Positions 15,097 to 48,512 of a stretch of 64,000 nt of DNA are shown here, one piece after another. The notes beneath the pieces were generated by a model. That model saw only the letters and a list, made by a program, of their open reading frames with translations. It was not told where the DNA came from and ran no database searches. The stretch comes from an uncultured Gemmatimonadaceae bacterium (GTDB taxonomy: Bacteria > Gemmatimonadota > Gemmatimonadetes > Gemmatimonadales > Gemmatimonadaceae). Numbering within the stretch: position 1 is the stretch's first letter; each line of letters starts with the position of its first letter. A program made the translations under genes and the position numbers. The stretch is taken from the NCBI GenBank assembly GCA_963829055.1, contig CAWHHI010000016.1, positions 736,001 to 800,000 on the forward strand. Direction: 5' to 3'.

Positions 15097-17714
15097 CGAG
15101 CTGCGACGACGGGCTCCTCCTGCTGCGCCTCCGCCTTCGTGAACACGATCTCCCCGTCGGCACCCTCGGTGGCGAGGATCGCGTCGCCGTCGTGGAACTG
15201 ACCGCCGAGCAACGCCATCGATAGCGGGTTCTGAATCATCCGCTGGATCGCCCGCTTGAGCGGACGTGCACCGTATGTCGGATCATACCCCTCCGACGTG
15301 AGCGCATGCTTCGCCTCCGGCGAGAGCTCGAGCGTGATCTTCTTCTCAGCCAACAGCTGCCGGAGGCGCGTGAGCTGCAGTTCCACGATGTCCTCCAACT
15401 GCTCTCGGCTGAGCGGACGGAACACGATGATGTCATCGACGCGGTTCAGGAACTCGGGGCGGAAATGCCCGCGCAGCGCGCCGAGCACCTGCGACTCGAC
15501 TTCGGCCCAGTCGGCCGTGCCGCGCTCGAGAATGATCTGACTGCCCACGTTGGACGTCATGATGATGACGGTGTTCCGGAAGTCCACCGTGCGGCCCTGC
15601 GAGTCCGTGAGCCGACCGTCATCGAGAATCTGCAGCAGGATGTTGAACACGTCCGGATGCGCTTTCTCGATCTCGTCGAACAGGATCACGGAGTACGGCC
15701 GGCGCCTAACGGCTTCCGTCAGCTGACCACCTTCCTCGAAGCCGACGTATCCCGGAGGCGCACCGATGAGGCGAGCGACGGCGTGCTTCTCCATGTACTC
15801 GGACATGTCGATGCGCACCATCGCGTGCTCGTCGTCGAACAGGAAGTCCGCGAGTGCCCGCGCCGTCTCGGTCTTTCCAACGCCCGTGGGGCCGAGGAAG
15901 ATGAACGAGCCGATCGGACGATTCGGATCCTGCAACCCGGCACGCGAGCGGCGGACCGCGTTCGCGACGGCTTCCACCGCCTCACGCTGTCCGACGACGC
16001 GATGCGCCAGCTCATCCTCGAGCTTCGTTAGGCGCTCGCGCTCGCTTTCCAGCATGCGCGTGATTGGAATTCCAGTCCACCGCGACACGACCTCGGCGAT
16101 GTCATCCGCCGCGACTTCCTCCTTCAGGAACTGGGGGCGCCCCGAGGCGCTCGCGAGACGCTGCTCCGCATCGCGCATCTGCTGCTCGAGCTGCGGAATC
16201 CTCCCGTACGTGATCTCGGCCGCCTTGCCGAGGTCACCTCGGCGCGTCGCCTGGTCTGCCTCGATGCGCGCCTGTTCGATCTCCTGCTTGATGCGTCCAA
16301 CAGCGCCGAGCGTTTCCTTCTCGTGCTGCCACTGCGCCTTCATGCCTTGCGAGCGCTCGCGTAGCTCCGCGAGCTCACGCTCGAGGTTCTCGCGGCGCTC
16401 CACAGACGCGGGATCCTTCTCCTTCTGCAGCGCCTGTCGTTCGATCTCGAGCTGCACGATGCGGCGCTCTACTTCGTCGATCTCCTGCGGCATCGAGTCG
16501 ATCTCGATGCGGAGGCGAGATGCGGCCTCGTCGATGAGGTCGATGGCCTTGTCCGGCAGGAAGCGGTCGCCGATGTAGCGGTTCGACAGCGTGGCGGCAG
16601 CAACCACCGCACCGTCGGTGATACGCACACCATGGTGTGCCTCGTAGCGCTCCTTGAGGCCGCGCAGGATGGCGATCGTGCTCTCGACGCTTGGCTCCCC
16701 AACGAACACCGGCTGGAAGCGCCGCTCCAGCGCCGCATCCTTTTCGATGTATTTGCGATACTCGTCGAGCGTGGTTGCGCCGACCACGCGCAGCTCGCCG
16801 CGAGCGAGCATCGGCTTGAGCATGTTGCCCGCATCCATCGCGCCTTCGGCCTTCCCTGCACCAACGAGCGTGTGCAGCTCGTCGATGAACACGACGAACA
16901 GCCCCTGGCTGTCGGTGATCTCCTTGAGGACGGCCTTGAGCCGCTCCTCGAACTCACCGCGGAACTTGGCGCCAGCGATGAGCGCGCCGAGGTCGAGCGC
17001 GATGAGACGCTTGTTGCGCAGACTCTCGGGGACGTCGCCGTTCACGATGCGCTGCGCGAGCCCTTCGGCGATGGCGGTCTTGCCGACGCCGGGTTCGCCG
17101 ATGAGAACCGGGTTGTTCTTCGTGCGCCGCGAGAGCACCTGCATAACGCGGCGAATCTCCTCGTCGCGACCGATGACCGGATCCAGTTTGCCCTTGCGAG
17201 CAGCATCGGTGAGGTCGCGCGTGTAACGCTGAAGCGCCTGGTACTGGTTTTCTGGCGTCTGATCCGTGACGCGGTGCGAGCCGCGCACGGCCTGCAATGC
17301 CTCGAGCAGCGCGTCGCGAGTTGCGCCGAGGGCGCCGAGAATGGTTCGGCTCTCGGAGCCCTTCGTCTCGGCGAGCGCGAGCAGCAGGTGCTCGGTCGAG
17401 ATGTACTCGTCGCCGAGCGCCTTTGCCTCATCCTCGGCCTTGTCGAGGACCTGGTTCATCTCGCGCGACATCGACGGCTGCGCGTTGCTCTGCTTGGGGA
17501 ACCGCGCGGACTCCCGCTCGACCTGCTCGCGGAGCTGCGTGACATTGACGCCGAGCTTTTGCAGGATGGGCACGACGATCCCCTCGTCCTGCCCAAGCAG
17601 GGCGGACAGGAGATGGAGGTCGTACACCAACGGATTGCCGGCGCGCCGGGCCTGTGCAATGGCCTCGTTCAGCGCTTCGGCTGATTTGACGGTAAGACGG
17701 TCGGCGTTGATCAT
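15093..17714 (-). CDS. clpB: ATP-dependent chaperone ClpB
   Basis: Two AAA+ modules ([16 protein letters not shown]), coiled-coil middle domain, [21 protein letters not shown]. Confidence 0.98.
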
Positions 17715-17796
17715 GTGCTGAGCAATAGGAACTGGGGAAGCGGGCCGAGCCCGCTTCCCTCGTCTTGATACCTGGTTGAAGTAGGCACCCCTAGAG

Positions 17797-17813
17797 GGCA
17801 ACCGCAATGCCGC
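17797..17813 (-). promoter_or_regulatory. Possible sigma54 (-24/-12) promoter upstream of clpB
   Basis: Minus strand GCGGCATTGCGGTTGCC fits GG-N10-GC with GGCA...TTGC, ~85 bp upstream of the ATG. Confidence 0.4.
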
Positions 17814-17861
17814 ATGCAGTGCGCCGTTGTGGCGCACTTTTGCCAACTTCGCCGACCGCGT

Positions 17862-18548: not shown

Positions 18549-19449
18549 GGAGGGGCGGTCCCAAAGGCTTCGGAGCGAGCGTGCGACGCTTGAGCAGACT
18601 CGAAGGGTCGCGCTCGAGCCGCGCGGACAGCTTCGCAAAATTCTCCGATGCGGAATTGAGGTTCTGCACGAGCTGGTTCACGCCGCCGCCCTGGTCCATC
18701 GCGCTCCGCAGCTCGATGACGAGCGATCGCGTCTCGCGCAGCGTCTCGAGCGCCTCGCGCTGCGTGTTGGCGAGTCCGGGGCTCGCGCCTGCCACCGCGG
18801 TATCGATCGTTCCAACGAGGCGCTCCGAATGCGCGAGCAGTTCACCGAGCTGGCGCGACGCGGCGTCGAGTCGATTCAGAAGTCGCTCCGAGCCCACCGT
18901 CGCGCCGCGCACGAGCGTGTCCGCGCGCGCGAGCGTCGAATCCAGTCGTGCAAGTGGATTCGCCTGCGTGAGCCGCTCGACGGAAGCGAACACGCTGTCC
19001 GCGCGATCCAGCGACACAGCGAGCCGGCGCATCGCATCCTGGACACTCAGGTTTGTCTCGCTCGGAATGCGCGCACCGGTCGCCAGGGTCGGCCCCTCTC
19101 CTGCGCCCGGCTCGAGCGCGAGGTAGGGCTGTCCGAGCAGGCCGAGTTGCGTGATGCTCGCGCGCGTCCCGGCGCGAACCGGCGTTAGGCTGCGCACGCG
19201 AAACCGAACCACGATGGCGGACGGCGGGGCTGAGTCGATGTCGAGCGCGGTCACCGCCCCAACACGGAGGCCGCCGTAACGCACCTCGTCACCCACGTTC
19301 AACCCGGCCACGTCGCGAAACGTGGTGCTGTACTCGTGCTGTCGATCGAGCAATGGCGTGCGTCGCGCGAACAATACGAGGCTGATGAACGCGATCGTGC
19401 CGACTCCCACGAGAACGGCAACACGCGCTCGCTCCCTTCGTGCGCTCAC
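18541..19449 (-). CDS. mlaD: MlaD/MCE family protein
   Basis: N-terminal TM, FRDVAGLNVGDEVRYGGLRVGAV, GLLGQPYLAL, helical C-terminus ending LERDPSSLL. Confidence 0.88.
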   Translation of the reverse strand: MSARRERARVAVLVGVGTIAFISLVLFARRTPLLDRQHEYSTTFRDVAGLNVGDEVRYGGLRVGAVTALDIDSAPPSAIVVRFRVRSLTPVRAGTRASITQLGLLGQPYLALEPGAGEGPTLATGARIPSETNLSVQDAMRRLAVSLDRADSVFASVERLTQANPLARLDSTLARADTLVRGATVGSERLLNRLDAASRQLGELLAHSERLVGTIDTAVAGASPGLANTQREALETLRETRSLVIELRSAMDQGGGVNQLVQNLNSASENFAKLSARLERDPSSLLKRRTLAPKPLGPPLRE

Positions 19450-20192
19450 GCCGCGCCTCGGCGATCGATGAAACGACGCACAGCCTGGTGTTGACTCCGG
19501 CGTAGGTGGTCGAGATCACCATGTTCGACGACTCGCCCGGCGGACAGCACGGACACGGCATCCGGGGACCGGAATGCGTAGCGCACCTCCTGCGAGCAGA
19601 TGAGCGCCGCGCAGCCGTATCGCAGCTGGAGCGCGGCGAGCGTGTCGTCGAGCTCCGTCGCGGCATGTGGATCGAGCCCGTGGCCTGGCTCGTCGATGAG
19701 CAGCAGTGGTGGCTCGAGGATGAGCGCCCGCGCCAGCGCCGCGCGGCGACGATCGAGTCGTGACAGGAACTCTGGCGTCCGGTCGATATCGCCTTCCACG
19801 CCCACCTCGCGAAGCAGCTCGGCGGCGCGGTCTCGCGCGGCACGAGCATCCATGTCCGTGTGCTCGACGAGTGGTAACTCCACGTTCTCCAGCATCGTCA
19901 GGCGTGAAACGAGCGCCGAGCTGTCGAACAGCACACCGACTCGACGACGCGCGCGGGCGAGCTGCTCGTCGTTAGGCGCGGCGGCATCGAACGAGATGCC
20001 GTCGATGGTCACCGTCCCGTGTTCGGAGCGTTGGAGCCCGAGCAGGAGTCGAAGCAACAACGATTTTCCGGAGTGCATCGGGCCCAGCACGATGTGCGTG
20101 CCGCCGCGCGGCACCGTGAGCGACACGTGCCGCATGATGGGTGAACCGGCGGGACCCGTCAGGTCCTGGACCTCCAGCGCAACGGAGCTCAC
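19446..20192 (-). CDS. mlaF: MlaF-like ABC ATP-binding protein
   Basis: Walker A GPMHSGKS, ARALILEPPLLLIDEP; lies between mlaE and mlaD. Confidence 0.8.
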   Translation of the reverse strand: MSSVALEVQDLTGPAGSPIMRHVSLTVPRGGTHIVLGPMHSGKSLLLRLLLGLQRSEHGTVTIDGISFDAAAPNDEQLARARRRVGVLFDSSALVSRLTMLENVELPLVEHTDMDARAARDRAAELLREVGVEGDIDRTPEFLSRLDRRRAALARALILEPPLLLIDEPGHGLDPHAATELDDTLAALQLRYGCAALICSQEVRYAFRSPDAVSVLSAGRVVEHGDLDHLRRSQHQAVRRFIDRRGAA

Positions 20193-20983: not shown

Positions 20984-21060
20984 GTCCTCCGTCGCGTCGG
21001 CGTCGCCGGGCGTCACGCTCGCTTGACGCATTCGAGGCCGGTGGATAGCCTTGCCGCCAC

Positions 21061-21429: not shown

Positions 21430-21459
21430 CGCAGTACGGCCGTATCGCCGCGCATAACG

Positions 21460-21492
21460 CGAGCGCCCCCCGGAATTCCCGGGGGGCGCTCG
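21460..21492. terminator. GC-rich hairpin between convergent genes (likely bidirectional terminator)
   Basis: cgagcgccccccgg-aattc-ccggggggcgctcg perfect inverted repeat; no clear U-tract. Confidence 0.75.
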
Positions 21493-21512
21493 ACACCTGC
21501 ACGATATGTTCG

Positions 21513-21964: not shown

Positions 21965-22056
21965 GTTGACTTCTCCAGCTGACGAAATAGGTCCGAAACG
22001 CTAACTCCTGAGCCAGGTTGACGGTTTACTACGGTTCGCTAAGCCTACTTCGCGCG

Positions 22057-22085
22057 AACATAGAACCGGCGGAAACACTTGTCAA
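22057..22085 (-). promoter_or_regulatory. Sigma70-type promoter upstream of the sorting-domain gene
   Basis: TTGACA-17 bp-TATGTT in an AT-richer intergenic region. Confidence 0.7.
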
Positions 22086-22141
22086 GCAACTACATCACTG
22101 CTTGCACAGTACACGATCCCGCAATACCGCCGCTATGCGAC

Positions 22142-23998
<1,857 letters not shown>

Positions 23999-24830: not shown

Positions 24831-26779
24831 CTACGGCCGCGGGCCACCAAGCGTCGCGCGCGCTCCGAGGAGCACCGTTCGGCCAGGTGCCGCGAACCCG
24901 AAGGTTGGTTCGTACTCGTGATCGAGCGCGTTCTCGATGCGCGCGGTCAGCGTTAGGTGCGACGCGCCCGCCCACAGGCGATCCAACGCTGCCTCAGCGC
25001 TCAGATCCAGGAGCGTGTAGGACGGCAGCTCGACACGCGCTTCCGCATTGAAGTCGCGGTCGTCGCGTGGCCCGATGAATCGAACGGCAGCCCCGACGCG
25101 AGATCCGCGCGCGAGCCGGTAGTCGGCGTTGAACGCCGCGGTGTGTGCGGGTCGCCGCAACAAGCGCTCCCCATTCACGAACGTGCCGAACGCGCCGTTC
25201 CCGGCGTCCGTGACGCGGGTTCGGAGCAAGGTGACGTTCGCGCCGAGGTCGAACGCGCCAACCATCGGTGCTCGCGCTTCGAGCTCCACTCCACGGGCGG
25301 ACGCGGCACCGAGGTTCTCATAGGTGCTCCGAAACTCGGTCGACGCGTCACCGGAGACATACTGGATGAGATCGCGGAAGCGCTGGTCGAAGTACGTCGC
25401 GCTTGCGAGCACGCGCTCACCGAATCGGTGCTGGGCGGACGCTTCCCAGCTCATGGTCCGTTCGGGCTGCAGATCGGGGTTCCCGATGCTGAACGCGGAT
25501 GAGAGCGCCTCCTCGAACGCCGGTGCCTTGAATGCATTCCCGACGGCGGCGCGTACGCTTGTCAATGCGAGGAGCTGCCAGGCGAGCGAAGCACGCCCGG
25601 TGACGAACGTACCGTACGTCGCGTTGTCGTCCACGCGGCCGCTGGCCGTATACGTTAGGCGCCCGAGTCCGGCGCCGATGAGCTGCGCGTACGACGGCTT
25701 CGTTCGTTCGATGCGCTGCCGTAGACGACGTCGATACCGGGAATGTCATGAACTGGCTCTCGCCCGAGCTCCGGACCTGCTCTCGCTCGACCGCTCCGCC
25801 GACCGAGAATGTCGTCTTGTCGTTGGCGTGCACATCAGCGCGCAGGTCTGCGCTCCGCCGCTCGATGCGCGAATCATCGCGGCTGTAGAACCCCGCGCTG
25901 TCGCCGGGGCTGTCGGGATCGTTCGACGATTCACCGTCCAGGCGCGATGCGGCTCCCAACAGTCGCAGATCGATACGCGACGTTAGGCGGTGGGTCGCAT
26001 CGAGTCCGATCACCGTCCGGTGATCGCGACGGACGGAATTGCTATCGACCACCGCACCGGAGCCGTCCGTTGGAAAATGGTACGTCGCGTCCGTGTGCCG
26101 AGCAGTGAGGTCCACCGACGCGAACGACGGAGCGAACGAGAGGCGTGCGCTCTCCGACCTGATTTCGATAGTCGTTGTTGAACGCGAAGATGCCGTCGCT
26201 CTGACGCCTCGACGCACCGAGCGAGTAGCCGACCCGCGGCGTTCCTCCGGCGATGTTGGCTTCTCCCTCGAGGCTCCCATACGACCCGCCCCGAACGTCG
26301 GCGAATCCATGTGCGGAACCGGCGCCGCGCCGCGTGAAGAGTTGCACGACACCGGCGACGGCATCCGATCCGTACACGACGCTCGCGGGGCCGCGCACGA
26401 CTTCGATGCGATCGAGGTTCTCCGTGGTGAGATTCGCGAAATCGAAGGCGCCGCCGGGGTTGTTCAGCGGCACGCCGTCCACGAGCACCTTCACGTAGTC
26501 ACTCTCCCCTCCGCGGGCGAAGAGCGACGTCGTCGCGCCGAACGAGCCACTTCGAACGACCATCAAGCCCGGGACGGAGGCGAGCGCGTCGCTCACGTTG
26601 GCGATGCCGCGCGATCGCAGGTCCTCGCCGCGAATGACGGTCACGGACGCCGGCGCACGCTGCTGGTCGATCGGTACGCGGGTCGCGCTGATGACGACCG
26701 GGCGAAGCACCGTCGTGTCGGTCGACTGCTGGGCAAGCAAAGGTGTGGCGAGAAGGCAGAGACTGAAAAGCAGTTTCAT
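24831..26779 (-). CDS. btuB: TonB-dependent cobalamin receptor (BtuB-like); frameshifts
   Basis: Signal peptide, TonB-box-like PVVISATR, plug VLVDGVP...RIEVVRGPASVVYGSDA, GNPDLQPE, ARIENALD...GRT; last gene downstream of a cobalamin riboswitch. Confidence 0.85.
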
Positions 26780-26880: not shown

Positions 26881-27670
26881 TTAGGATCTCCTCCCTGCGC
26901 GCAGCGGCACGAGCGCCGGGGCGCCGACGGCCGGGTCGCGCGTGACCACGAGTGGCCAGTCGTACACACGCTCCAGCACGTCGCCGCGCATCACGTCAGC
27001 CGGCGTCCCCGCGGCGGCGACGGCCCCGCGGTGCAGCAACACGACGTGCTGCGCGAAACGCGCGACGAGGTTCAGCTGGTGGCTCACGACGAGAATCGCC
27101 TGGCCACGTCGTGCAAGGACGTCGAGCAGCTCGAACGCCGACATCTCGTGCGCAATGTCGAGGTACGTGGTCGGCTCATCGAGCACGAGTGCCTTCGCGT
27201 CCTGCGCGAGCGCTCGGGCAATGCGCACGCGCTGCCACTCGCCCCCCGACAGCTCGTCCGTCGTGCGACCCATGAACGCGGCGACCTCGGCCTCGTCGAC
27301 GGCGCGGGCAACGGCGGCCGCGCCTAACGGGTCGGCGGTGCTCCACAGACGCGTATGCGGGTGACGCCCAAGCGCAATGTACTCGCGCACGGCGAGCGGG
27401 AAGGCAGGTTCCTCGCGCTGCGACACCACCGCCACTCGCCGCGCCAGTTCGCGACGGTCGAGGTGCGCCGTGTCCTCACCATCGACATTGATGGCACCCC
27501 CGCTCAACGGCACGCGGCCGAGCAGGGCGCGGACGAGCGTGCTCTTTCCGCTCCCGTTAGGCCCCGCGACCGCGGTGATAGCGCCCGGGAGGCACCTCGA
27601 ACGACACGTGATTCACCGCAGGCTCGGCCGCCTTCGGATATCGCACGACGACGTCGTCGAAGCGGATCAT
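26881..27670 (-). CDS. btuD: Cobalamin ABC transporter ATP-binding protein; frameshift near 27580
   Basis: GPNGSGKST, LSGGEWQRVRIARALAQ, LDEPTTYLDIAHE. Confidence 0.85.
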
Positions 27671-28653
27671 CGGTAGCGACGGAGCTGAACGAGGAAAAAC
27701 GGGACGCCGGCGAGCGCTGTCACGGCGCCAAGCGGCAGCTCGCTCGGCGCGCGCAACGTGCGGGCGACGAGATCCGCCGCAATGAGCAGCGCCGCACCCG
27801 CAAGCCCGGCCGCCGCAATGACCGCACGGTGGCGCCGACCGGCGCGCGAGCGCACGAGGTGTGGCACCACCAGGCCGACGAAGCCGACAAGCCCTGCGGC
27901 CGCGACAGTCGCAGCGGCCAGCAGCGATGCGAGGATGTACGCGCGGCGGCCGGCTCGGTCGACGTCGACACCGAGCCCCGCGGCCGCGTCGTCGCCGAGC
28001 GCGAGCACGTCGATCTCTGGCGCCCAGAGCAGCAGCGCACTTGCCGAAGCGATCGCGTACGCCGCGAGCCATCCAACCTGCACCCAGGTCGCGCCGGCGA
28101 CGGAGCCCATCATCCACCACAGCGCATTGCGGACCGCGTCCGGTGGCGCCGACGCCAGCGCGACCATGATCACGGCGTTCGCGAACGCACCGACGACTAC
28201 GCCCGCCATGAGAAGCACGCGTGGATCTGGCCGCCCGGCGCCTGCACGCGCGATCGCGAGGACGAGCACGACGGCGACGACAGCACCCCCGAACGCACCC
28301 ACCGGCACGAACCCGAACGGCGCTCGGCTCGCGACCGCGATGACCGCGCCGACCGCCGCACCGCCGGACACGCCCAGCAGATACGGCTCGGCGAGTGGGT
28401 TGCGCATCGTGCCCTGGAGTGCGGCTCCGCTCATCGCGAGCGCCGCCCCGACGAGCGCCGCGAGGACGACGCGAGGCGCCCTGATGTCGCGCATGATGGC
28501 GACGGCCGTAAGGTCGCCCCGTCCAGCGAGCGCCGTCCACACTTCGGCTGGCGTTAGGCGCACCGGCCCGATCCCGAGTCCGAGGAGGGCAGCGACTCCC
28601 ACCGCGGCCAAGAGCCCGACCCAGAGCGCGACGTTCGATCGCGTCACCGTCAC
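27667..28653 (-). CDS. btuC: FecCD/BtuC family permease
   Basis: IRAPRVV...LQGTMRNPLAEPYLLGVSGGA, GFVGLVVPH, ELPLGAVTALAGVPFF. Confidence 0.9.
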   Translation of the reverse strand: MTVTRSNVALWVGLLAAVGVAALLGLGIGPVRLTPAEVWTALAGRGDLTAVAIMRDIRAPRVVLAALVGAALAMSGAALQGTMRNPLAEPYLLGVSGGAAVGAVIAVASRAPFGFVPVGAFGGAVVAVVLVLAIARAGAGRPDPRVLLMAGVVVGAFANAVIMVALASAPPDAVRNALWWMMGSVAGATWVQVGWLAAYAIASASALLLWAPEIDVLALGDDAAAGLGVDVDRAGRRAYILASLLAAATVAAAGLVGFVGLVVPHLVRSRAGRRHRAVIAAAGLAGAALLIAADLVARTLRAPSELPLGAVTALAGVPFFLVQLRRYR

Positions 28654-29657
28654 GGCACGGCCCCTGGGTGGAGCAGGCGCGCGAGCGACACTGCCGCCTC
28701 GCCTAACCGCACCCCCGGCCGGCCCACCAGCATTGTGTCCACGATGAGGACGCGGCCGTCTCGCACGGCACGCAGCGCGCGCCAGGCGGGCGCCGCGCGC
28801 ATGCGCCGGGCGGATTCCGGGCCCGCGAGGACGACATCCGGGTCGCGCCTAACGACGTCTTCGATGGTCACGTCGAGTGACGGCCGCGGATCATCGCCGT
28901 AAATGTTGCGGCCGCCGGCAATCTCCACCAGCTCGGTGAGAAAACTGCCGCCGCCGATCGCGATCACCGGGGAATCCCAGGCCTTCCAGAACGCCGCGGG
29001 CCTCACCGCGCCCTGTGTCGCGGCCCGAACGCGTGCGAGCGTCCGGTCGACGGAGTCGACGACGGCATGCGCGGCGGTGGTGTCGCCGAGCACGCGTCCC
29101 AGCACCAACACCGTGCGGCGAAATTCCGCGATGCGATCGACGCGAAGGGTGAGCGTCGGAACGCCGGCCGCGCGGAATCGCTTCGCCGCGTCGCGGTTCT
29201 CGTTGCTGGCGTAAAGCACGACGAGGTCCGGACGCGCGCCGAGCACTGCCTCGACGTTAGGCTGCATGCCATTCCCGAGGTCAGGCACGGCGAGCGCGGC
29301 GCTCGGATAGAGATCGTAGTGCGTGCGGCCGACGAGGCGGTCACCAGCGCCGAGCACGAAGAACAGCTCGGTGGTCGCCGGATTCAGCGAGACGATGCGG
29401 CGCGGCGACGGGCCCAGCACGAGTGTATCGCCGAAATCATCCTGGATCGTCGAGACCCCGAGCGGCCGAACTGGCTTGCGCACGCGGTGATGCCCGTTCG
29501 GCGGATGGCCGATCACACGCCGCGCTCGCGCCCAGCAACGCCGCGAGGGCGACGAACGGGAACCGCGACCGGCGATGATGCACGAAGGGCATCCTCCTGA
29601 TGGGAAGATGCCCGGGCAGATGCGCCGCGCCTGGTGCGAAGCCGCAAATTGCCACAA
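28650..29657 (-). CDS. btuF: Cobalamin-binding periplasmic protein; N-terminus uncertain
   Basis: DDFGDT...PRRIVSLNPATTELFF...LVGRTHYD, PNVEAVLGARPDLV, GRPGVRL. Confidence 0.85.
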   Translation of the reverse strand: MWQFAASHQARRICPGIFPSGGCPSCIIAGRGSRSSPSRRCWARARRVIGHPPNGHHRVRKPVRPLGVSTIQDDFGDTLVLGPSPRRIVSLNPATTELFFVLGAGDRLVGRTHYDLYPSAALAVPDLGNGMQPNVEAVLGARPDLVVLYASNENRDAAKRFRAAGVPTLTLRVDRIAEFRRTVLVLGRVLGDTTAAHAVVDSVDRTLARVRAATQGAVRPAAFWKAWDSPVIAIGGGSFLTELVEIAGGRNIYGDDPRPSLDVTIEDVVRRDPDVVLAGPESARRMRAAPAWRALRAVRDGRVLIVDTMLVGRPGVRLGEAAVSLARLLHPGAVP

Positions 29658-29850: not shown

Positions 29851-31044
29851 CTAGACCGCGACTTCCTCGTTGGCAAGCACCGCGGTGAGTTGCGCCTTCA
29901 GTGCATCGCGTCGCGCCTGATACGATGCGCGCTGCGCATCGGTCGCCGATGCGTTGCGCGCGAACGCCTCGTCGAGGTCGGCAATGTCACGCGCGAGGTG
30001 AGCGGCATCAGGCGGCGCGTTGTCGCCCGCGACGACCGTGACGGGACGTCGCCTCGTTAGGGCGACCGCCAGCGCGAGACACATGATCGTCCCCGCCGCA
30101 ATCATGAGCACCGGGAGAAAGCGGTTGCCGCGCGGCGCGGTTGGCGCGCCAACGCCGATGGTGATCTGCCCACCCTGACGCACATCCTGTCCGAGGAATC
30201 GTCGGAATCGACGACCCTCCAACGTGGCGACGGGTTGCTCTGCAAGGCCACCACCGGCGACCGTCGCATCCGGATCCTCGACGAGCACCTCGAACACGCC
30301 GACCGACTCGGCAACGGGAACGGCGAGCGGAAAGTCCGCAGCCGGTACCGAATACGAGAACGCGACTTGGCGAATGCCCGGCGAGATCGACGCGTACGCG
30401 AGGACGCGGCCGTCGCGGAATTGCACCGCGTTGCTGCCGATGTCGCTCTGGCCGACCTGGAAGTCCGTCGCGTTAGGCGGCAGCGCCGTGCTCCAGGTGG
30501 CGCGGCCGCGCGCGCCCGGCACTGCCGTGACTGTGGTGTCGTTGGAGAGCTCGAACACCTCGACCAGCGTTCGTCGTCCGTCGACGCCGCTCGCGGACAC
30601 GACGAGATGCCGTCCTCGCGTACGCACCGGGACCGGGGCCAATGTCGTGTCGAAGACGGTGATCTCTCCGGCGTCACCAGCCGCATCGGTCGCAGGAAGT
30701 GGCGCGGTGAAATACGCGACGCCACCGAACATGCTCGCCGCGAAGTACACCGCGTCGCCGGCGACGGGCTTGTAGCGCATCGAGTATCGTCCGTTCGCGT
30801 CCGAGCGAACGGAGTCCACCGGTCCGCTGCTGTCGGCCGCGACACGGTGCAGCGTCACCCACGCGCCCGGCACCGTGATCATGCCGCTCCGACCGGGACG
30901 CACCACGCGCCCACTCACCGTACGCGGTGCCAGAGACTGCGGAGCAGCGCGACTGGCCGTATCCTGCGCGATCGCCACCTGGGCGCTCAGCATCGCGCCG
31001 AGCGCGAGTCCAGCACCACGCGCGAACGCCGACCGAGCACTCAC
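29851..31044 (-). CDS. Uncharacterised exported protein with beta-sandwich domains, C-terminal TM and short helical tail
   Basis: Signal peptide, TVSGRVV...SDANGRY, TM FLPVLMIAAGTIMCLALAVAL, tail LARDIADLDEAF. Confidence 0.7.
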   Translation of the reverse strand: MSARSAFARGAGLALGAMLSAQVAIAQDTASRAAPQSLAPRTVSGRVVRPGRSGMITVPGAWVTLHRVAADSSGPVDSVRSDANGRYSMRYKPVAGDAVYFAASMFGGVAYFTAPLPATDAAGDAGEITVFDTTLAPVPVRTRGRHLVVSASGVDGRRTLVEVFELSNDTTVTAVPGARGRATWSTALPPNATDFQVGQSDIGSNAVQFRDGRVLAYASISPGIRQVAFSYSVPAADFPLAVPVAESVGVFEVLVEDPDATVAGGGLAEQPVATLEGRRFRRFLGQDVRQGGQITIGVGAPTAPRGNRFLPVLMIAAGTIMCLALAVALTRRRPVTVVAGDNAPPDAAHLARDIADLDEAFARNASATDAQRASYQARRDALKAQLTAVLANEEVAV

Positions 31045-32965: not shown

Positions 32966-34735
32966 CTAGCTGGCGAGCAAGCCGTCGCCCAGGAAGGACG
33001 CGTCGCCAAACGCAGCGCGCAGACGTCCGGCCAACTGCCGCTCGGCACCGGCCGCATTGTCCGAAGCGAGCGCCGCTTCTGCCGCCTCCACTGCCAATTC
33101 CACGCTGATACCGCGGACAATGTGCTTGACCAGCGGCACCGCCCGTGGACCGACGCTGAGTTGCCGGACGCCCAGACCGATGAGGGCAAAGACCATCACC
33201 GGTTGAGACGCCATCTCGCCGCATACAGCAACTTCCAGCCCAGCGGCTCGGCCTACTTCGACCGTCCGCTTTACCAGGCGGAGAACGGCCGGATGGAGGG
33301 GGGTGAATCGAGCCGCGAGATTCACGTTCCCCCGGTCCACGGCGAGGGTGTACTGGACGAGATCGTTCGTTCCGATGCTGAAGAACGCGACCTCGCGGGC
33401 CAGCACGTCGGCTCCCATCGCGGCGGCAGGCGTCTCGACCATCACGCCCAGGGGCAGGTCGCGTCGGAATGGAACGCCACGCGCCTCGAGGTCCGCCGCC
33501 GCCTCGTCCAGCAGGTGACGCGCTTCCCGGACCTCATCGATGGTCACGATGAGCGGAAGCATGATGCGAACATCGCCGTGCAGTCCGGCACGCAGCAGCG
33601 CCCGAAGCTGGGTCTTGAACATCTCCGATTCGTCGAGACACATGCGGATCGCGCGCCAGCCGAGGAACGGATTCGCCTCGTGGGGAAATCCACCGGCCGG
33701 CAGCTTGTCGCCGCCAATGTCGAAGGTACGAATGACGACCGGCTGTCCGCCGAACGCTTCCACGACGCGGCGGTACGCACGGTATTGCTCTTCCTCGTCA
33801 GGCATTGTCGTCCTGCCGACGACGAGAAACTCCGTTCGCATGAGGCCAACGCCTTCTGCGCCACTCGTAGCCGCCAGCGTCGACTCCTCGGGCAGGTCGA
33901 CGTTCGCGCGCAGCGTTATGCGAACGCCATCAGTCGTCACCGGTTCTGCCGAGAGCAGCAATCGAAGCTCTGCTTCGTCGCGTGCCTCGCGCTCGGCGCG
34001 ATGCTGGAAGACCGCGACCTCGGCGTCGGTTGGGTTGATCACCAGCGTGCCGGTGGACCCGTCGAGGACGGCGTTCTCGCCTCCCGTTAGGCGGCTGATC
34101 GCATCGCGCAGACCCACCACCGCAGGCAATCCGAGCGACCGCGCGAGAATCGCGACGTGCGATGTGCGCGTGCCCGCGTCGGTCGCCAGCCCCGCGATCG
34201 CATCGCGATCCAACTGCACCGTGAGGCTGGGCGTCAGATCGTGCGTTACGAGAATCGCCTTCGCGCCCTTCGGCACGTCCACCGGATCGTGATCCGGGAG
34301 GCCGAGCAGGATCGACAGCACGCGGATGTGGACGTCGGTGAGATCGCCGACGCGCTCGCGCATCATGGGCGACGCGTGATGCGCGAACCGCGCGCGCCAC
34401 TCGTGCAGCACGACGTCGAACGCTTTCTCAGCCGCGAGATTCTGCCGGATGTACGACCGGACCTGATTCCCGAGATCGTGATCGTCGAGAATGGAGATCT
34501 GCACGTCGAAGATGGCTGCCTCTTCGGGGCCGGCGTGACTCGCCGCTCTGTCGCGAACCTGGGCCAGTCGTTCTTTCGCGCGCTCGACGGCCTCGTCGAA
34601 GCGCGCGATCTCCGCCGGAATCGCGTCGTCGGGGATGATGCGCGTGGCGACGTCGGGCACCTCCCAGCGGAGGAGGTGCACGGGCCCCACGACAATGCCC
34701 GGCGAGGCGGGAATTCCGGTGAGTGCGCGATCCAC
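32966..34735 (-). CDS. ptsI: PTS enzyme I
   Basis: [57 protein letters not shown]. Confidence 0.96.
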
Positions 34736-37340: not shown

Positions 37341-38302
37341 CGTCTTCCACCAGGTACTGCCTAACGTCCGCCTGCTCGCGCATGCGCCCGATGAGCCGTT
37401 CGTTGAACGCCTCCGCCGGGTTCACGCCGCTGTAGCGCAGCAGATGGTTCATCGCGATGACTTCGGCGATCACGGTGATGTTCTTTCCAGGATTCAGGAA
37501 CACCTTGATCTTCGGCAGCTCGACACCGAGGATCGTGGTCGTCTCGGTATCGAGACCGGTGCGGTCGACGACGGCATCCTGGTCCCACTCCTCCAGGTGA
37601 ACCACCACCTCCATGCGCTTCTGCTGGCGCACGGCCCGGATGCCGAAGATCGCGGGAATGTCGATGAGCCCAACGCCGCGAATTTCCATGAAGTGGCGCT
37701 GGAGCTCGTGCCCTCGTCCGATCAGGAGGTCGTTGCCGCGGCGCGTCATGATCACGAGATCGTCAGCCACGAGACGGTGCCCACGCTCCACCAGATCGAG
37801 CACGCATTCGGACTTGCCGATACCGCTCTTTCCGGTGAAGAAGAGGCCGACGCCGAAGACATCCGCCAGCGAGCCGTGGAGCGTCGTGGAGGGCGCGAAC
37901 AGGTCGTCGAGAATCGGCTTCGTGCGCCGATAAAACTCACCGGTCTTGAGCGGCGTGCGGAACACGGGCACGCCATGCTCGCTCGCGATCGCCTGCGAAT
38001 CCCGACGGCAGCTCCTGCGCTTTCGTGACGAACACGCACGGCAGCTCGAGCGCGAAGAACATTCGAAGCACGTGCTCGCGGGCCTCCCGCGCCAGCGAGC
38101 CGAGATACTGGATCTCCGTCTCGCCGAACGCCTGAAGCCGATGCGCAGGAAACCGATCGAGGTAGCCCGCCAGCACGAGTCCGGGGCTCGACACGTCGGC
38201 GCTCGTCACGAGGCGATCGAGTCCGCCGGTGCCGATCTGTTCCAGCGGGAGCCCGCGCTTCAGGCGCGCGACGAGGGCGCCGACGGTGAGCGGTCGATTC
38301 AC
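37333..38302 (-). CDS. hprK: HPr(Ser) kinase/phosphorylase; frameshift near 38000
   Basis: SPGLVLAGY...GETEIQYL; LHGSLADVFGVG, GKSGIGKSE, LVADD, FMEIRGVGLID, PGKN. Confidence 0.93.
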
Positions 38303-40702: not shown

Positions 40703-41911
40703 TTACAGCGCGCGCAGGTGGCCGAGCTTCTGCACTTTCGTCGCCAGGTAGCTGGCGTTTTCCTCGGTGGTCGGCGCTTCGATGCGCACGCGATCCACGA
40801 CGCTCAGCCCGTAGCCCTCGAGGCCCACCAGCTTCTTCGGATTGTTCGTCAGCACACGAATGGATTTGAGACCGAGATCGAGCAGGATCTGCGCGCCGAT
40901 GCCGTAGTTCCGGAGATCAGGCTTGAAGCCTAACGCCTCATTGGCCTCGACGGTGTCGTGTCCGCCATCCTGGAGCTCGTACGCCTTGAGCTTGTTGAGG
41001 AGGCCGATGCCGCGCCCTTCCTGATCGAGGTACACGACGACCCCGCGGCCCTCGCGGGCGATCATCTCCATCGCCGTGTGCAGCTGCCAGCCGCAGTCAC
41101 AGCGCATCGAGTGAAACACGTCGCCCGTTAGGCACTTGGAGTGCATGCGCACGAGCACGGACTCGCCGTCGTCGACGTCGCCGTACACGAGCGCCACGTG
41201 CTCGCGCGTGTCCACGTCGTTGCGATAGCCGACGATGCGCCAGTCCTTGCCCGCGATGTCCGTCGGCAGGCGCGCTTCCGCGACGCGATGAACGAGCCGC
41301 TCGTTCTCGAGCCGGTGCGCGACGAGCTGCGCCACCGTGACGAACGTGAGGCCGTGGTCGGCGGCGAAGCGCGCGAGATCATCGCGCTTCATCGTCGTGC
41401 CGTCCTCATTCAGGATCTCGCAGATGACACCCGCGGGATAGAGCCCGGCGAGTCGCGCCAGGTCGACCGCCGCCTCGGTGTGTCCGACGCGCTGCAGCAC
41501 GCCGCCGTGCCGTGCGCGCAACGGGTGCACGTGCCCGGGACGCCTCAGATCACCGCGAACCGTGGCCGGATCGACCGCAACCTGGATCGTTCTCGCGCGG
41601 TCGGCGGCACTGATGCCGGTCGTCACGCCGAAGCGCGGCGCCGCATTGATGCTCACCGTGAACGCGGTGCGGAACGCGTCGGTATTCTCGTCGCCCTGCG
41701 GCGGAAGTCCGAGCTGATCGACGCGCTCGCCCGTGAGCGCGAGACAGATCATGCCCTTCGCCTTGAGCATGAAGTTGATGATCGCGGGCGTGACGAGCTG
41801 CGCCGCGCAGATCAGATCACCTTCGTTCTCGCGGTCTTCGTCGTCCGCGACGACGACGAGCTTGCCGGCGCGAATGTCCGCTATTGCCTGAGGGATAGTA
41901 CCGAATTTCAT
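40703..41911 (-). CDS. ribBA: Bifunctional DHBP synthase/GTP cyclohydrolase II
   Basis: [57 protein letters not shown]. Confidence 0.96.
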
Positions 41912-43683: not shown

Positions 43684-43697
43684 CCGGAGTGGGTCAT

Positions 43698-44743
43698 TCA
43701 GTTTCCGATACGAAGTCCGACGGACGCATAGGTGAGCGCGTCGTCGGCACGCTTGCCCGAGAAGCTGTTGTACGTCTCGATCGTGCCACCCGACACGCGC
43801 CCGAACTCGGCCGCGAACTTGAGGAACGGGAAGTTGAGCGACACGTCGGCGAACATGTTCGACCGCGTCACCTTCTGCGTCAGACCGTACGGGCCGCCGT
43901 CGATGCTGAAGTTGCCCTCGTTCACGCGCACTGTTCCCGTTGCACGCGAATCGTACTGGTCTTTCCCGGCGCCGGCCGCGAGGCCGAGGAAGCCAAGCGA
44001 CTTGCCAACGACGCCACGCCATGCGGACGTCTGCACGCCGATGTCCGAGATGCGTGATGTTGTCGTCGCCGGATATCGCCGAGATGCCCGTCGTCGGGAG
44101 GTCACGCCGGAGGTACGTCACCGAAACCGACGGCGTCGCGACGGACTCGGTGAGGAGTCCGAGGCGCCCGCCGAAGCCGAGCTTGAGCGAGCCGCCGGGG
44201 ACGGAGAGCGCGACCTTGCTGCGCGTGAACTCCGGCACGTACGTGGCACTCACGAGCGCATCGAGCGCGAACGCGTGAGTGACGCCCATCGGGACGCCAC
44301 CGAACACTCCCAGCGCGCCCTCGACGGTCGGCAGCCCGACCACCTGGTCGTTCACATCATAGTCGCTCCGGACCGCCCCAGTGATCGCGGCGTCCATGTT
44401 CTCCACCTGCGGCACGCGTCCGCGAATGCCGTTCCCGCGCACGCCGATCGAGAAGTGGCCAAGGCCGCCTAACGCGCCGCCGGTGCCGAGCGTCGCACTG
44501 CCGCCGACGAGCCCGATGCCGAGCTGCGGCGTCATGAACGCGAAGATGTCGACCGCCTTCTGACAGGCGTCCTGTACCGCGCGATCAGGCAGCGTCAGCC
44601 CGGGGCAGCGCGGGTCGATGCCCTGCGCGTGGAGCGCGGCCGGGACCGAGAGTGCGACCGCGAGACCGGAGAGCGCAACAACCGTACGGAGCGGGGAGCT
44701 CGGTGAAACCTTCGAATGCGATCGACTTCGAGTGCGACTTCAT
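43698..44743 (-). CDS. Putative outer-membrane beta-barrel protein; frameshifts
   Basis: Signal-like ...LAVALSVPAALHAQ, Cys pair, amphipathic strands, C-terminal TYASVGLRIGN. Confidence 0.6.
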
Positions 44744-44755
44744 GCCGGTGGATCC

Positions 44756-45815
44756 TCAGCTGAGAGTGACACGCCCGCTGCCGGGGACAACTCGCCCCAG
44801 CGGCCAAGCGTTCACGCCCGCCGCGGCAGCGCTCGCAACGATCGCGTCGGCACCGCTCGCCGAACTGACGACGATCATGCCGACGCCCATGTTGAACGCG
44901 CGGAACATCTCATCGCGCGGGACTTGCCCCGCGCGCTCGAGGACCCGGAAGGCGTTAGGCACCTCCCATGTTGCCGTGTCGACCACGGCGTCCAGCGAAT
45001 CCGGCAGCGCGCGGTTGAGATTTCCCGGGATACCGCCGCCCGTGATGTGCGCCATGGCGTGGACGTGATCCTCCGCACCATCGAGCACCGGGAGCAGCGA
45101 CGCGAGATACGACTGGTGGACTCGCAGTAACACGTCGGCCACCGAGCCGTCCTCCCCCGGAAAGGGGTCGTGCGGACCGAGGCGCAACCGCTCCGCCACG
45201 ATCCGTCGCGCCAGCGAGTACCCGTTGGTATGCAACCCCGAGCTCGCCAACCCGACCAGCACGTCCCCGTCACGCACACGCCCTGAATCGAGCACGCGCG
45301 CCTCTTCCACACATCCGACGATGAAGCCCGCCAGATCGTAATCCGGCGGCACATACAACCCTGGCATTTCGGCAGTCTCGCCGCCGATCAGGGCACACCC
45401 GTTCTCGCGACAGCCTGCCGCCACACCACTCACTACCCCTTCCACGACCGCCGGCTCGAGCTTGCCGAACGCGACATAATCCAGGAAGAACAGCGGCCGC
45501 GCGCCCTGCACGAGGATGTCGTTCGTGCAGTGGTTCACGAGGTCGTGACCGACCGTATCGTGCCGATCGGCCTCGATGGCGACCTTGATCTTCGTGCCGA
45601 CACCGTCCGCGCTGGCGACGAGCAGCGGACTCGTTAGGCCCGACGGCATCCGGAACATTCCGCCAAAGCCGCCGAACGCGCCGCGCATGCCCGCGGTGCG
45701 CGTCGACTCGACGAGACGCGCGAGACGCCCCTTCGCGTCGTCGGCCGCCTCGATGTCGACGCCCGCGCTGCGATAGTCGAGCGCCCCGCTCGTGGCGCCG
45801 TCGGGGGCCGGTCAC
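44756..45815 (-). CDS. purM: Phosphoribosylformylglycinamidine cyclo-ligase; frameshift near the start
   Basis: DYRSAGVDI, GGFGGMF, ADGVGTK, LIGGETAEMPG, SSGLHTNGYSL, AHITGGG, FNMGVG. Confidence 0.95.
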
Positions 45816-46729
45816 GCGGGCAGATCCTCCTCGTACGCGACGAGTCGTCGGAACTCGGTGAGACGTTTCCGGATGTCCGACGTGTCGATCTCGAGCAGGC
45901 GTTGAATCGAGAATCGCTCCACCGCGAACGAGCCCATCGCCGAGCCGTACACGACCGCGCGACGGAGACTGTCGTCGTCGATGCGGCCCGTGCGCGCCAG
46001 GTAGCCCATGAATCCACCGGCGAAGGAATCGCCGGCGCCCGTCGGATCGAACACATCCTCGAGCGGGTAGGCCGGCGCGAAGAACACGGAGTTTTCGGTG
46101 AACATGAACGCGCCATGCTCGCCCTTCTTGATGATCACGTGGCGCGGCCCGCGCTTCATGATCCATCGCGCGGCCTTCACGAGGTTCGCCTCCTCGGTGA
46201 GCTGCCGCGCCTCGCTGTCATTGAGCGTGATGAGATCCACGTGCTCGAGGAGCGCGAGGAGATCGGGACGACGGCTCTCGATCCAGAAGTTCATCGTGTC
46301 GCAGGCCACGAGCTTCGGGCGCTCCACTTGCTGCAGCACGTCCAGCTGAAGCCGCGGATCGATGTTCGCGAGAAAGACGAACGGCGCTCGGCGGAACTGT
46401 TCGGGGATCTTCGGCCGGAAGTGCGAGAAGACGCCGAGTCGCGTCTCGAGCGTTTCGGCGGAGTTGAGGTCGTGCCGGTATCGCCCGCGCCAGCGGAATG
46501 ATTCACCGTCGGCGCGCTCGAGTCCCGCGAGATCGACGCCGCGTTGCGCCAGCGGCGCGAGCTTGTCGACGGGATAGTCACTCCCCACGACGCCGACGAG
46601 CTGCACGGGCGCGAAGTGGCTCGCGGATGCGGAGAAGAACGTGCCCGACCCGCCCAGCACATCTTCGGCTTTGCCGAAGGGAGTCTCGACGGAATCAAGG
46701 GCGACAGAGCCGACTACCAGGACGGTCAT
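45812..46729 (-). CDS. PfkB family carbohydrate/nucleoside kinase
   Basis: VVGSVALDSVETP, GGSG, DTMNFWI, KKGEHG, DPTGAGDSFAGG. Confidence 0.92.
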   Translation of the reverse strand: MTVLVVGSVALDSVETPFGKAEDVLGGSGTFFSASASHFAPVQLVGVVGSDYPVDKLAPLAQRGVDLAGLERADGESFRWRGRYRHDLNSAETLETRLGVFSHFRPKIPEQFRRAPFVFLANIDPRLQLDVLQQVERPKLVACDTMNFWIESRRPDLLALLEHVDLITLNDSEARQLTEEANLVKAARWIMKRGPRHVIIKKGEHGAFMFTENSVFFAPAYPLEDVFDPTGAGDSFAGGFMGYLARTGRIDDDSLRRAVVYGSAMGSFAVERFSIQRLLEIDTSDIRKRLTEFRRLVAYEEDLPA

Positions 46730-46749
46730 GATTTCGGGGGAAAGAGCAA

Positions 46750-46847
46750 GCTGGTGGCTGGGTGGTCGTGCTGGTGGCTGGGTGACGCTGGGTGCAGCTG
46801 GTCACTCAGCATCACCCAGCAACAAGCACCCACACCCAGCAACAAGC
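46750..46847. repeat. Long imperfect palindrome built from GCTGGGTG/CACCCAGC units
   Basis: ~45-bp arms around cagctg; same family as 26805-26880. Confidence 0.8.
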
Positions 46848-46859
46848 CGCAGTCGTCGA

Positions 46860-48512
46860 TCACATTCTCTCCGGCGCCGAGATGCCGAGGATGCCTAACG
46901 CATTGCGGAGCACGATCTGGGTCGCGCGGGCGAGGACGAGGCGTGCCGTGCGCAGCGGTTCCGGTTGGTCGAGCACGTGATGCTCGTGATACCAGCGGTG
47001 GGCGAGTCCCGCCGTGTCCTGCAGGTAGGCAGCGATGCGATGCGGCTCCAACGCGTCGGCCGCGCCAACGACGAGCGACGGAAAGTCCACGAGTTGCTTC
47101 GCGAGCTCTCGCTCTTCCAGCGTGTCGAGCACGGCGAGGTCGACGCTCGATGCGTCGATCGACGCCGGGTCGATCCCGCCCTGCCGAAAGATGCCGCACA
47201 TACGCGCGTGCGCCATCTGAATGCGATAGATCGGATTCTCGTCGGATTGCGTGCGCGCGAGATCGACGTCGAACCGGAGTTGCGACTCCGGCTTGAGCAT
47301 GAGGTAGAAGTAGCGAACAGCGTCGCGCCCGACCCAGTCGATCAGGTCGCGCACGGTGACGATGTCGCCCGCTCGCTTGGAGAACTTCACCTCCTGCCCC
47401 TCGCGCATCACCGTCACCATCTGGTGCAGCGCGTACTCGGGGTACCCCTCCGGGATACCCATGCCTAACGCCTGCAGACCCGCGCGGACACGGGTGACCG
47501 TGCTGTGGTGGTCGGCGCCCTGCACGTTGATGGCGCGCTGGAAGCCTCGGCCCCACTTGTCCACGTGATACGCGACGTCCGGCAGGAAGTACGTGTAGTC
47601 GCCGCCGCGCTCCCTGCTCCGGCGCATCACGCGGTCCTTGTCGTCGCCGAATCCGGTCGTGCGCAGGAACAGCGCGCCATCCTGTTCGTACGTGTGACCC
47701 GACTGGACGAGCGCCTCCACGGTCGAACCGACCTTGCCGTCGGTGTACAGCGAGCTCTCGAGAAAATAGTTGTCGAACTTGACGCCGAACGCCTGCAGGT
47801 CGAGGTCCTGTTCCTTCCGGAGCGCTGCAACCGCGAACTTCCGCACCGCGTCGGCGTCCTGACCCTCCGGATCTTCCGGATGCTGGGCCATGTAATCGAA
47901 CGCGATCTCGCGGATGTAGTCCCCGTGGTATCCGCCCTCGGGGATCGCGAGCGCACCGGTGCGTGACTCCGCGATGCGCGCCTGCACGCTGCGGGTGAGG
48001 TTGGCGATCTGCGCGCCGGCGTCGTTGTAGTAGAACTCGCGCGACACGCGCCATCCGGTCCATTCGAGCAGACTCGCGATGGCGTCGCCTAACGCTGCCT
48101 GACGGCCGTGGCCGACGTGCAGCGGGCCGGTGGGGTTCGCCGACACGAACTCCACGTTCACGTGGCGCCCCTGGCCCACGTCCGCACGGCCATACTGCGC
48201 GTCCGCGGTGACGATGTCGCGCAATCCACCAGCAACGGTCCCGGTGTCGAGCCGGATGTTGATGAACCCCGGCCCGGCGACGTACGCCTCGCTCACGCCG
48301 GCGCGCGCGAGATCCATGAGCCCGATGAGATCGGTGGCGATCTCCTGCGGCTTGCGGCGCAACGGCCTGGCGAGCGTCATGGCGAGATTCGTCGTCCACT
48401 CGCCGAACGACGGATCACGCGGCCGCTCGAGCACCGGCGCCACCGGCTCGGGCGCGCCTAGCGAGCGGGCTGCGCGAGTCAGCTCGTCACGAATGAGATC
48501 AGGCGCGCTCAT
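46860..48512 (-). CDS. argS: Arginine--tRNA ligase
   Basis: AGPGFINI, VEFVSANPTGPLHVGHGR, REFYYNDAG, FSKRAG, ISAPERM. Confidence 0.97.
   Translation of the reverse strand: MSAPDLIRDELTRAARSLGAPEPVAPVLERPRDPSFGEWTTNLAMTLARPLRRKPQEIATDLIGLMDLARAGVSEAYVAGPGFINIRLDTGTVAGGLRDIVTADAQYGRADVGQGRHVNVEFVSANPTGPLHVGHGRQAALGDAIASLLEWTGWRVSREFYYNDAGAQIANLTRSVQARIAESRTGALAIPEGGYHGDYIREIAFDYMAQHPEDPEGQDADAVRKFAVAALRKEQDLDLQAFGVKFDNYFLESSLYTDGKVGSTVEALVQSGHTYEQDGALFLRTTGFGDDKDRVMRRSRERGGDYTYFLPDVAYHVDKWGRGFQRAINVQGADHHSTVTRVRAGLQALGMGIPEGYPEYALHQMVTVMREGQEVKFSKRAGDIVTVRDLIDWVGRDAVRYFYLMLKPESQLRFDVDLARTQSDENPIYRIQMAHARMCGIFRQGGIDPASIDASSVDLAVLDTLEERELAKQLVDFPSLVVGAADALEPHRIAAYLQDTAGLAHRWYHEHHVLDQPEPLRTARLVLARATQIVLRNALGILGISAPERM

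Follow-up and report, generated by a model that had tools for sequence, protein, structure and literature searches.

Sequence-specific uptake tags are, to our knowledge, established in two proteobacterial families only. The DNA uptake sequence (DUS) of Neisseriaceae is read by the minor pilin ComP, and the uptake signal sequence (USS) belongs to Pasteurellaceae. In the available parts of the papers describing them, DUS and USS occur about once per 1–1.5 kb, are non-palindromic and without orientation bias, lie in several reading frames, raise the peptides that they encode, originate by point mutation, form dialects, and are non-additive at close sites (PMC2817400, PMC7811141, PMC1939737, PMC2397512). 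The HIP1 (highly iterated palindrome 1) octamer of cyanobacteria (GCGATCGC) is hyper-abundant beyond codon needs, and its function is given as unknown in the part of its description available (PMC5861425). Here we describe an eight-letter, non-palindromic DNA word, CGTTAGGC (GCCTAACG on the reverse complement strand), which shares these features of DUS and USS and the abundance of HIP1. The word was noticed in a stretch of 64,000 nucleotides, hereafter the window, from an uncultured Gemmatimonadaceae bacterium (assembly GCA_963829055.1, contig CAWHHI010000016.1, positions 736,001 to 800,000). It differs from DUS and USS in phylum and in letters, is limited to 8 bp without flanking information, is scattered over the family tree, and is common to Verrucomicrobiota contigs and phages. 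A literature search that covered few subscription papers found no paper describing the word.

The window contains 40 copies of the word in the two orientations, compared with 0.90 ± 1.00 expected from 100 shuffles. Thirty of them lie within gene calls, one on a stop codon, and nine outside the calls. The 7.78-Mb assembly that holds the window (G000), which named relatives of its argS place in Gemmatimonadaceae, has 5,004 copies, 49-fold more than predicted by an order-2 Markov model, and in the ranking by this model the word is the most over-represented 8-mer of the genome. Its density is one per 1.5 kb, with a mean spacing of 1,529 bp, and the strands carry 2,547 forward and 2,457 reverse copies. 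The information of the word is limited to its eight bases, and there is none in the flanks of the G000 copies. The core GTTAGG is near-fixed, position 1 tolerates T, position 6 T, and position 8 T or G. The rRNA loci contain zero and one word in 4.5 kb each. Genes were called with our own rough caller (5,611 genes, 72% coding), and frameshifts in the assembly inflate the count of words outside genes. The gene names used here (clpB, selB, argS, ptsI, and comEC) pass the NCBIfam cut-offs.

The word is written into genes in exactly four reading frames, which together hold 3,022 copies within the G000 gene calls: xCG-TTA-GGC (1,228), CCT-AAC (827), CTA-ACG (566), and GTT-AGG (401). The two remaining frames would each contain a stop codon. 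Of the words, 378 overlap stop codons, and the word holds 184 of the 724 TAA stops and 145 of the 1,473 TAG stops of the gene calls. An earlier note on this DNA had proposed at least four frames; the four frames, together with stop codons and spacers, are found genome-wide. The same note called TTA, CTA, and AGG otherwise rare in these genes; the dependence on the word is strong for TTA, lower for CTA, and weak for AGG. The exact word contains 48% of TTA (1,228 of 2,550; the relaxed core contains 1,881 of 2,542), 17% of CTA (566 of 3,389), and 8% of AGG codons (401 of 5,056); the counts for the window are 10 of 21, 8 of 31, and 3 of 41, respectively. In the context xCG-Leu-GGC, TTA is chosen in 1,228 of 2,738 cases, compared with 2,550 of approximately 167,000 leucine codons overall, and the outcome that the earlier note had named as refuting its claim was not observed. 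In the context xGC-Leu-ACG, CTA is chosen in 566 of 1,057. The use of TTA and CTA in word-rich genomes reflects a DNA signal, not translation. Some of the encoded peptides are more frequent than their reversals in G000 (xPNx, 1,415 versus 820; ALG, 2,607 versus 1,696), and raised encoded peptides are also reported, in the part of the paper available, for USS and DUS (PMC2817400). The peptides GLT and PLG are not above their reversals in G000.

The change that creates a site is mostly silent and in some cases alters an amino acid. The six sites that the earlier note had named in clpB, selB, and argS are all exact, with the codons it had given. In clpB, the word at 15704..15711 (−) is read as GCC GTT AGG CGC (A-V-R-R) and is exact in all three aligned same-genus genomes; the word at 16026..16033 (+) is read on the gene strand as CGC CTA ACG (R-L-T), and the three aligned kin keep the peptide without the word. 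The selB site at 23855..23862 (+), CTG CCT AAC GTC (L-P-N-V), is exact in five of five kin. The three argS sites, at 46893..46900, 47463..47470, and 48087..48094 (all −), are read as GCG TTA GGC (A-L-G) and are exact in four, five, and six of six word-rich kin, respectively. More distant kin have G-L-x at the first of these positions, and mostly CTC or CTG encoding the same A-L-G at the third.

Six word-rich kin carry the exact word at 76 of the 111 positions aligned to window sites, and at 62 of the 74 where the peptide is unchanged, compared with a background 8-mer identity of 16–19% and a synonymous codon identity near 0.5. At 21 more distant loci, the window word is exact in 4 of 199 cases, three of them in a locus (L013) that is itself word-rich. 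Two relatives aligned to G000 at 78% identity have 34 of 69 sites (G381, over 225 kb) and 93 of 146 sites (G343, over 266 kb) in common with it. In the ptsI region of 70 genomes, word-rich genomes have 124 sites in 83,800 codons, and word-poor genomes one in 112,986. The recurrent word positions of this region encode peptides that are invariant in word-poor kin (S-L-G in 30 of 32, C-L-T in 22 of 22), and in most cases word sites are one to three substitutions away from orthologous non-sites. The word thus sits on peptides that word-poor kin write with ordinary codons, and it is kept far above background, with turnover, in word-rich kin; therefore, the force acts on the DNA. The proposal that selection or drive targets the DNA and not the protein is supported by the four frames, the stop codons and spacers, the silent placement, and the conservation above background.

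The words of G000 avoid one another. Their pair correlation is 0.19 below 50 bp, 0.52 at 150–200 bp, and approximately one from 500 bp onwards; control words in the same genome have no such depletion. A slot was defined as a position where the protein would permit the word, and its occupancy was determined by distance to the nearest other site. Occupancy increases from 3.4% below 50 bp to 4.0% at 50–100 bp, 10% at 100–150 bp, 13% at 150–200 bp, 20% at 200–300 bp, 25% at 300–400 bp, 27% at 400–600 bp, and 32% at 600–1,000 bp. It also climbs from 16% to 31% with native-like GC content at third codon positions. All four orientation classes of pairs closer than 150 bp are depleted, with 41, 36, 29, and 24 pairs compared with 114 expected for each. 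The variants TGTTAGGC, CGTTATGC, CGTTAGGT, and CGTTAGGG are likewise depleted near exact sites (0.39–0.45), and CGTTCGGC and CGTCAGGC are not (1.03–1.05), so that the spacing of variants alone yields a functional logo of the word. The avoidance is also found in G343, G381, and other genera, and is weaker in pooled phage loci. A pooled set that includes G283 has avoidance at 100–200 bp and none below 100 bp, where short tandem runs occur. Local word clusters in G000 indicate no autoregulated gene. Such a force, blind to orientation and saturating within about 200 bp, suggests that a protein of short catchment binds the double strand, and the sharp 200-bp avoidance curve constrains the mechanism of this putative reader. 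Only 1.4% of word neighbors are within 100 bp of each other, unlike USS, of which 23% lie within 100 bp of another according to the part of the study available (PMC7811141).

The word has a patchy distribution. About 78 of 251 genomes of the family, by hand count, have at least 100 words per Mb, and outside the family, three of 231 genomes of the phylum are word-rich, all from one genus; three unpublished genomes are counted only in these two totals. In a FastTree phylogeny of three proteins from 71 genomes, word-rich genomes form at least eight groups interleaved with word-poor ones, with good local and weak deep support. Genera have dialects at the flanks of the word around the fixed core, with position 1 relaxed in genus g25 and position 8 in genus g4, as judged from small counts. 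Plasmid 1 of Gemmatirosa kalamazoonensis carries 32 words in 50 kb. Two metagenome contigs with affinity to Verrucomicrobiota have in-frame words, 8 in 16.4 kb and 4 in 1.4 kb, of which two on each contig are present by the selection criterion. The word is absent from foreign-looking stretches, yet it is frequent in phages and not rarer in unaligned DNA of two kin. A phage contig with portal, terminase, and capsid genes contains 31 words in 17 kb, and further phage contigs contain 15 in 7.1 kb, 29 in 44 kb, 29 in 46 kb, 26 in 25 kb, and 43 in 41 kb; the reversed-word controls, where given, number 2–8. All the viral loci were picked for carrying a word pair, and most viral matches are attC arrays, other repeats, or chance pairs. 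A Mu-like provirus (L321 / G491) has 26 words in 25.5 kb, and 11 of its 25 spacings measure 560 to 730 bp. Two large phage contigs of 42% GC (L180 and L204) carry 14 and 7 copies of an intergenic repeat of 16 bases that includes the octamer and is confined to one strand; this repeat is likely a phage regulatory site different from the dispersed word.

By analogy, the word plausibly acts like DUS and USS, and its tested features are unlike those of attC, HIP1, Chi, or KOPS (FtsK-orienting polar sequences). The best explanation, which we hold tentatively and at slightly less than an even chance, is that the force on the DNA that maintains CGTTAGGC throughout the genome stems from uptake, the word being a tag similar to an uptake sequence and multiplied by drive. 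A sequence-specific receptor, which we predict to form part of the type IV pilus machinery of competence, would recognise the word in either orientation. Fragments with the word would be taken up and recombined at a higher rate, and its copies would accumulate by molecular drive. The reader would be a protein with a catchment of about 200 bp, to which a second nearby site would add little, and the advantage of a site would raise its odds approximately 100- to 200-fold relative to local codon usage. The bias may have been gained or lost repeatedly along the family tree. Uptake bias combined with drive is the only process known to us that gives this set of features. In Haemophilus influenzae, a second USS within 100 bp of the first brings no increase in uptake, according to the part of the study available (PMC7811141), and such non-additivity of close pairs would give the observed avoidance pattern. 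The uptake-sequence signature proposed in the earlier note holds for frames, silent sites, and conservation, and some other features differ from those of DUS and USS; an uptake function is plausible.

Several observations weigh against uptake. Compensatory turnover of sites has no excess in six tests on the G381 and G343 alignments (best p 0.05). Word density in the unaligned parts of these two relatives is no lower than in the aligned parts (0.37 versus 0.32 and 0.78 versus 0.58 per kb), unlike that of DUS in the available part of the report (PMC2397512). Close inverted terminator pairs, which are common for DUS and USS although uptake does not require them, are missing, with 24 and 29 inverted pairs below 150 bp compared with 114 expected for each, and the listed inverted pairs are attC sites or lone cases. 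The phage contigs have 0.6–2.1 words per kb, at host level or higher, and one word-rich phage contig is 98% complete, with no tyrosine integrase found in it. A tag common to two phyla cannot mark a species. The uptake genes are as common in 37 word-poor as in 40 word-rich genomes, and the pil loci of four rich and four poor genomes have no gene that separates them. The orphan pilin described below is no closer to ComP (Z 4.9, rmsd 3.7, 86 aligned) than to other pilins and has no cysteines, and its family is mostly acidic (pI below 6 in 11 of 16 members).

The reader was sought in a self-chosen panel of 80 genomes, 40 of them word-rich (one at 72 per Mb), three intermediate, and 37 poor. Seven families fail to separate rich from poor genomes: IntI (in 63 genomes), the IntI N-terminal family (69), ComEC (77), PilM (76), ComEA (78), ComM (76), and Ku (61). 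No reader gene was found among the families profiled over the panel. G000 itself has a comEA match and a pil locus, and the window includes comEC, encoding the DNA uptake channel, at 52330..54429 (−; TIGR00361, 247 bits, cut-off 190), which provides only context for an uptake function. An AddAB-type nuclease domain is present in three of the 40 word-rich and 19 of the 37 word-poor genomes. This anti-correlation breaks down in the genus of the window, where four of seven genomes (G000, G381, G462, and G413) carry the domain. The domain was not seen in 57 of the 80 genomes, and NurA was not found in five of five. A tyrosine recombinase was rejected as the reader: G000 has just three such domains, and the XerD arm of dif is not the word. 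A first orphan pilin was also rejected, with matches in five of five rich and poor genomes. A second orphan type IV pilin-like gene lies at G000:C16:947,580-948,030 beside tRNA-Met, ftsB, and eno; it is frameshifted here and intact in G343. It matches 15 of the 40 rich and one of the 37 poor genomes at an arbitrary cut-off, with two further matches to another paralogue, and was not found with this query in ten word-rich genera. The family (421 clusters at E 1e-10) is undescribed, and 15 of 16 members have no Pfam match beyond the N-terminal motif. The protein has a type IV pilin fold, resembling Clostridioides difficile PilA1 (Z 9.1, rmsd 3.0, 107 aligned), and no close solved relative was found by sequence or Foldseek. 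This pilin is a weak lead as a candidate reader. The word-rich and word-poor sister lineages are natural contrasts for finding the reader, and a word of USS or DUS strength in abundant soil phyla, with a cultured strain of published genome, makes the origin of genome words testable.

The word has a second identity in integrons. The R box of attC sites has the consensus GTTRRRY / RYYYAAC. In word-poor kin, the clusters of the word are attC arrays, the ends of which read CGTTAGGC and TGTTAGGC; among the 24 ends of 12 such hairpins, each of these two spellings occurs 10 times. The word is identical to the R box, at the R' and R'' ends, of attC hairpins of Gemmatimonadales, and the shared spelling is difficult to ascribe to chance. 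G000 has an integron at C20:170,000-209,000, with intI at 208,007-208,943 and attC-like sites past its 3' end. The dispersed words differ from attC sites, in which paired R''/R' and L boxes lie in a hairpin of 57–141 nt: they are single, unpaired, and mostly coding, avoid each other over distances of attC length, and require bases that are dispensable for IntI. An unlikely extension of the uptake explanation is that an uptake receptor was repeatedly tuned to the attC core in soil Gemmatimonadota and Verrucomicrobiota, with which these bacteria fish cassettes from environmental DNA. The integrase would insert them without homology, and the chromosomal and phage copies would be a by-product of drive. 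If true, this would make the word a third uptake-sequence family, and the first that spans phyla and targets foreign modules instead of self DNA. Through the identity of the word with the core of attC, natural transformation and the traffic of gene cassettes may be connected.

It is quite improbable that the dispersed words are recognised directly by IntI or a related integrase, each as a single R box of attC type or as a genomic insertion site, despite the presence of the word as R box in word-poor kin and near the intI of G000, and the resemblance of its tolerated variants (T at position 1, T at 6, T or G at 8) to attC ends, the spectrum of which is biased because the attC sets were located through the word. 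IntI is an unlikely reader because it does not track word richness, its domains occurring in rich and poor genomes alike, and because IntI1-3 need only GWT at genomic targets, according to the available part of a preprint (10.1101/2022.09.11.507474). In addition, GTTAGAC, which is present at attC ends, is not enriched (24 copies), our own filter finds 33 attC-like hairpins in G000 compared with 5,004 words, and insertions would disrupt genes rather than write silent codons. Equally poor prospects attach to a HIP1-like origin, from a methyltransferase with biased repair or from another mutational bias. The C-to-T decay products of the word are rare in G000 (13–24 copies), and mutational bias would neither space sites nor need two changes in one leucine codon. 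The method of the methylome study of G. kalamazoonensis detects 5-methylcytosine (5mC) weakly. That study reports three methylated motifs in this word-rich species, none of which matches the word (PMC3974934). Abundance and silent conservation of the word are similar to those of HIP1 in the available part of its description (PMC5861425), but HIP1 is palindromic, tied to methyltransferases in the accessible part of another report (PMC4390886), and periodic at tens of kb, whereas the word is asymmetric, not methylated in the single published methylome (which covers 5mC poorly), and spaced at 200–300 bp. A codon, dipeptide, or translational effect such as rare-codon pausing, or an origin as mobile-repeat remnants, is hardly credible. 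The TTA-GGC frame is the commonest, and slot occupancy is slightly lower in the first fifth of genes (0.20 versus 0.22–0.26), as a codon effect might give; the translational explanation is refuted because the word is frame-independent, occurring in four frames, on both strands, in spacers, and on stop codons. The lack of information outside the eight bases and the few substitutions that separate most sites from orthologous non-sites also speak against these origins. Chi and KOPS are, like the word, non-palindromic octamers over-represented genome-wide, and temperate phages can carry host Chi. A dif-like site lies at the GC-skew maximum of G000 (C16:560,796), and the KOPS-like GGGNAGGG is polarised towards it. 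GGGNAGGG flips strongly at this site, from 49:3 to 10:64, whereas the word changes from 160:112 to 185:208, less than a control 8-mer (87:41 to 57:91); on contig C16 the word is without polarity at dif beyond gene-strand bias, unlike Chi and KOPS, which are polarised along replichores. The avoidance also acts between opposite orientations, and no AddAB-type nuclease domain was seen in 37 of the 40 word-rich genomes. A signal of this type for a directional helicase-nuclease or translocase is therefore largely refuted and very improbable.

The main rival to uptake is an intracellular self-mark or chromosome-maintenance site copied by phages, a possibility that we consider real but the less probable of the two. 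On this view, a cytoplasmic protein would bind the word and guard about 200–300 bp around it from a nuclease, or license them for repair or for the organisation of the nucleoid. Fitness would rise slightly with every isolated site, and phages would copy the word so as to be taken for self. Such a site would saturate regardless of orientation, as observed, and accessory DNA is not poorer in the word. Phage words are written in frame with rare codons, with 14 pairs closer than 200 bp compared with 30 expected, and their density at host level or above is explained more simply by an intracellular benefit than by uptake; the phage loci, however, were selected for carrying a site pair, and several of the word-rich phage contigs are or may be temperate. 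The AddAB distribution hints at the processing of DNA ends, but it fails in the genus of the window, and the related genomes are not independent of one another. With one word in every 1.5 kb, a range of 200–300 bp covers only about a third of the chromosome, and neither a reader nor a partner was found for the self-mark, as is the case for the uptake tag.

The remaining words of the window are distributed along its length. In called genes they lie at 150..157 (+), 3657..3664 (+), 4107..4114 (−), and 5896..5903 (−), and outside gene calls at 744..751 (+), 1365..1372 (−), 4845..4852 (+), 10814..10821 (−), 11044..11051 (−), 11817..11824 (+), 25653..25660 (+), 25981..25988 (+), and 27555..27562 (+). 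Leucine-containing peptides are encoded at 13873..13880 (−) and 49640..49647 (−; both T-L-G), 19183..19190 (+; S-L-T), 27322..27329 (−; P-L-G), 28552..28559 (+), 34085..34092 (+, in ptsI) and 53746..53753 (+, in comEC; all three R-L-T), 40928..40935 (−) and 44467..44474 (−; both A-L-G), 41126..41133 (+; C-L-T, invariant in word-poor kin), and 45632..45639 (+; G-L-T). The P-N frame is used at 19970..19977 (A-P-N-D), 29255..29262 (Q-P-N-V), 30471..30478 (P-P-N-A), 44953..44960 (V-P-N-A), 50557..50564 (R-P-N-D), 57308..57315 (A-P-N-V), and 57905..57912 (T-P-N-V), all on the plus strand, and the V-R frame at 28847..28854 (V-V-R-R) and 37359..37366 (D-V-R-Q), both on the minus strand. The word at 60278..60285 (+) provides the TAA stop codon of the gene at 60280-61314 (−).

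Three long stretches of G000 (C6:9,000-55,000, C11:1-42,000, and C6:592,000-623,000) are free of the word and carry housekeeping genes of another style; they are probably foreign DNA or mis-joined contig ends, and the word provides a quick contamination test for word-rich genomes. The comEA-like gene (G000:C12:494,300) and the addAB genes (C15:10,400-16,000) appear, like many genes of the assembly, to be split by frameshifts, which are likely assembly indels. A nested hairpin repeat starting GTCATTCCGAG occupies positions 50702-50880 of the window and recurs many times in genomes of the same genus. It is similar to the Ssn-related motif (SRM/NTS), as far as that motif is described in the available part of its report (PMC11893778).

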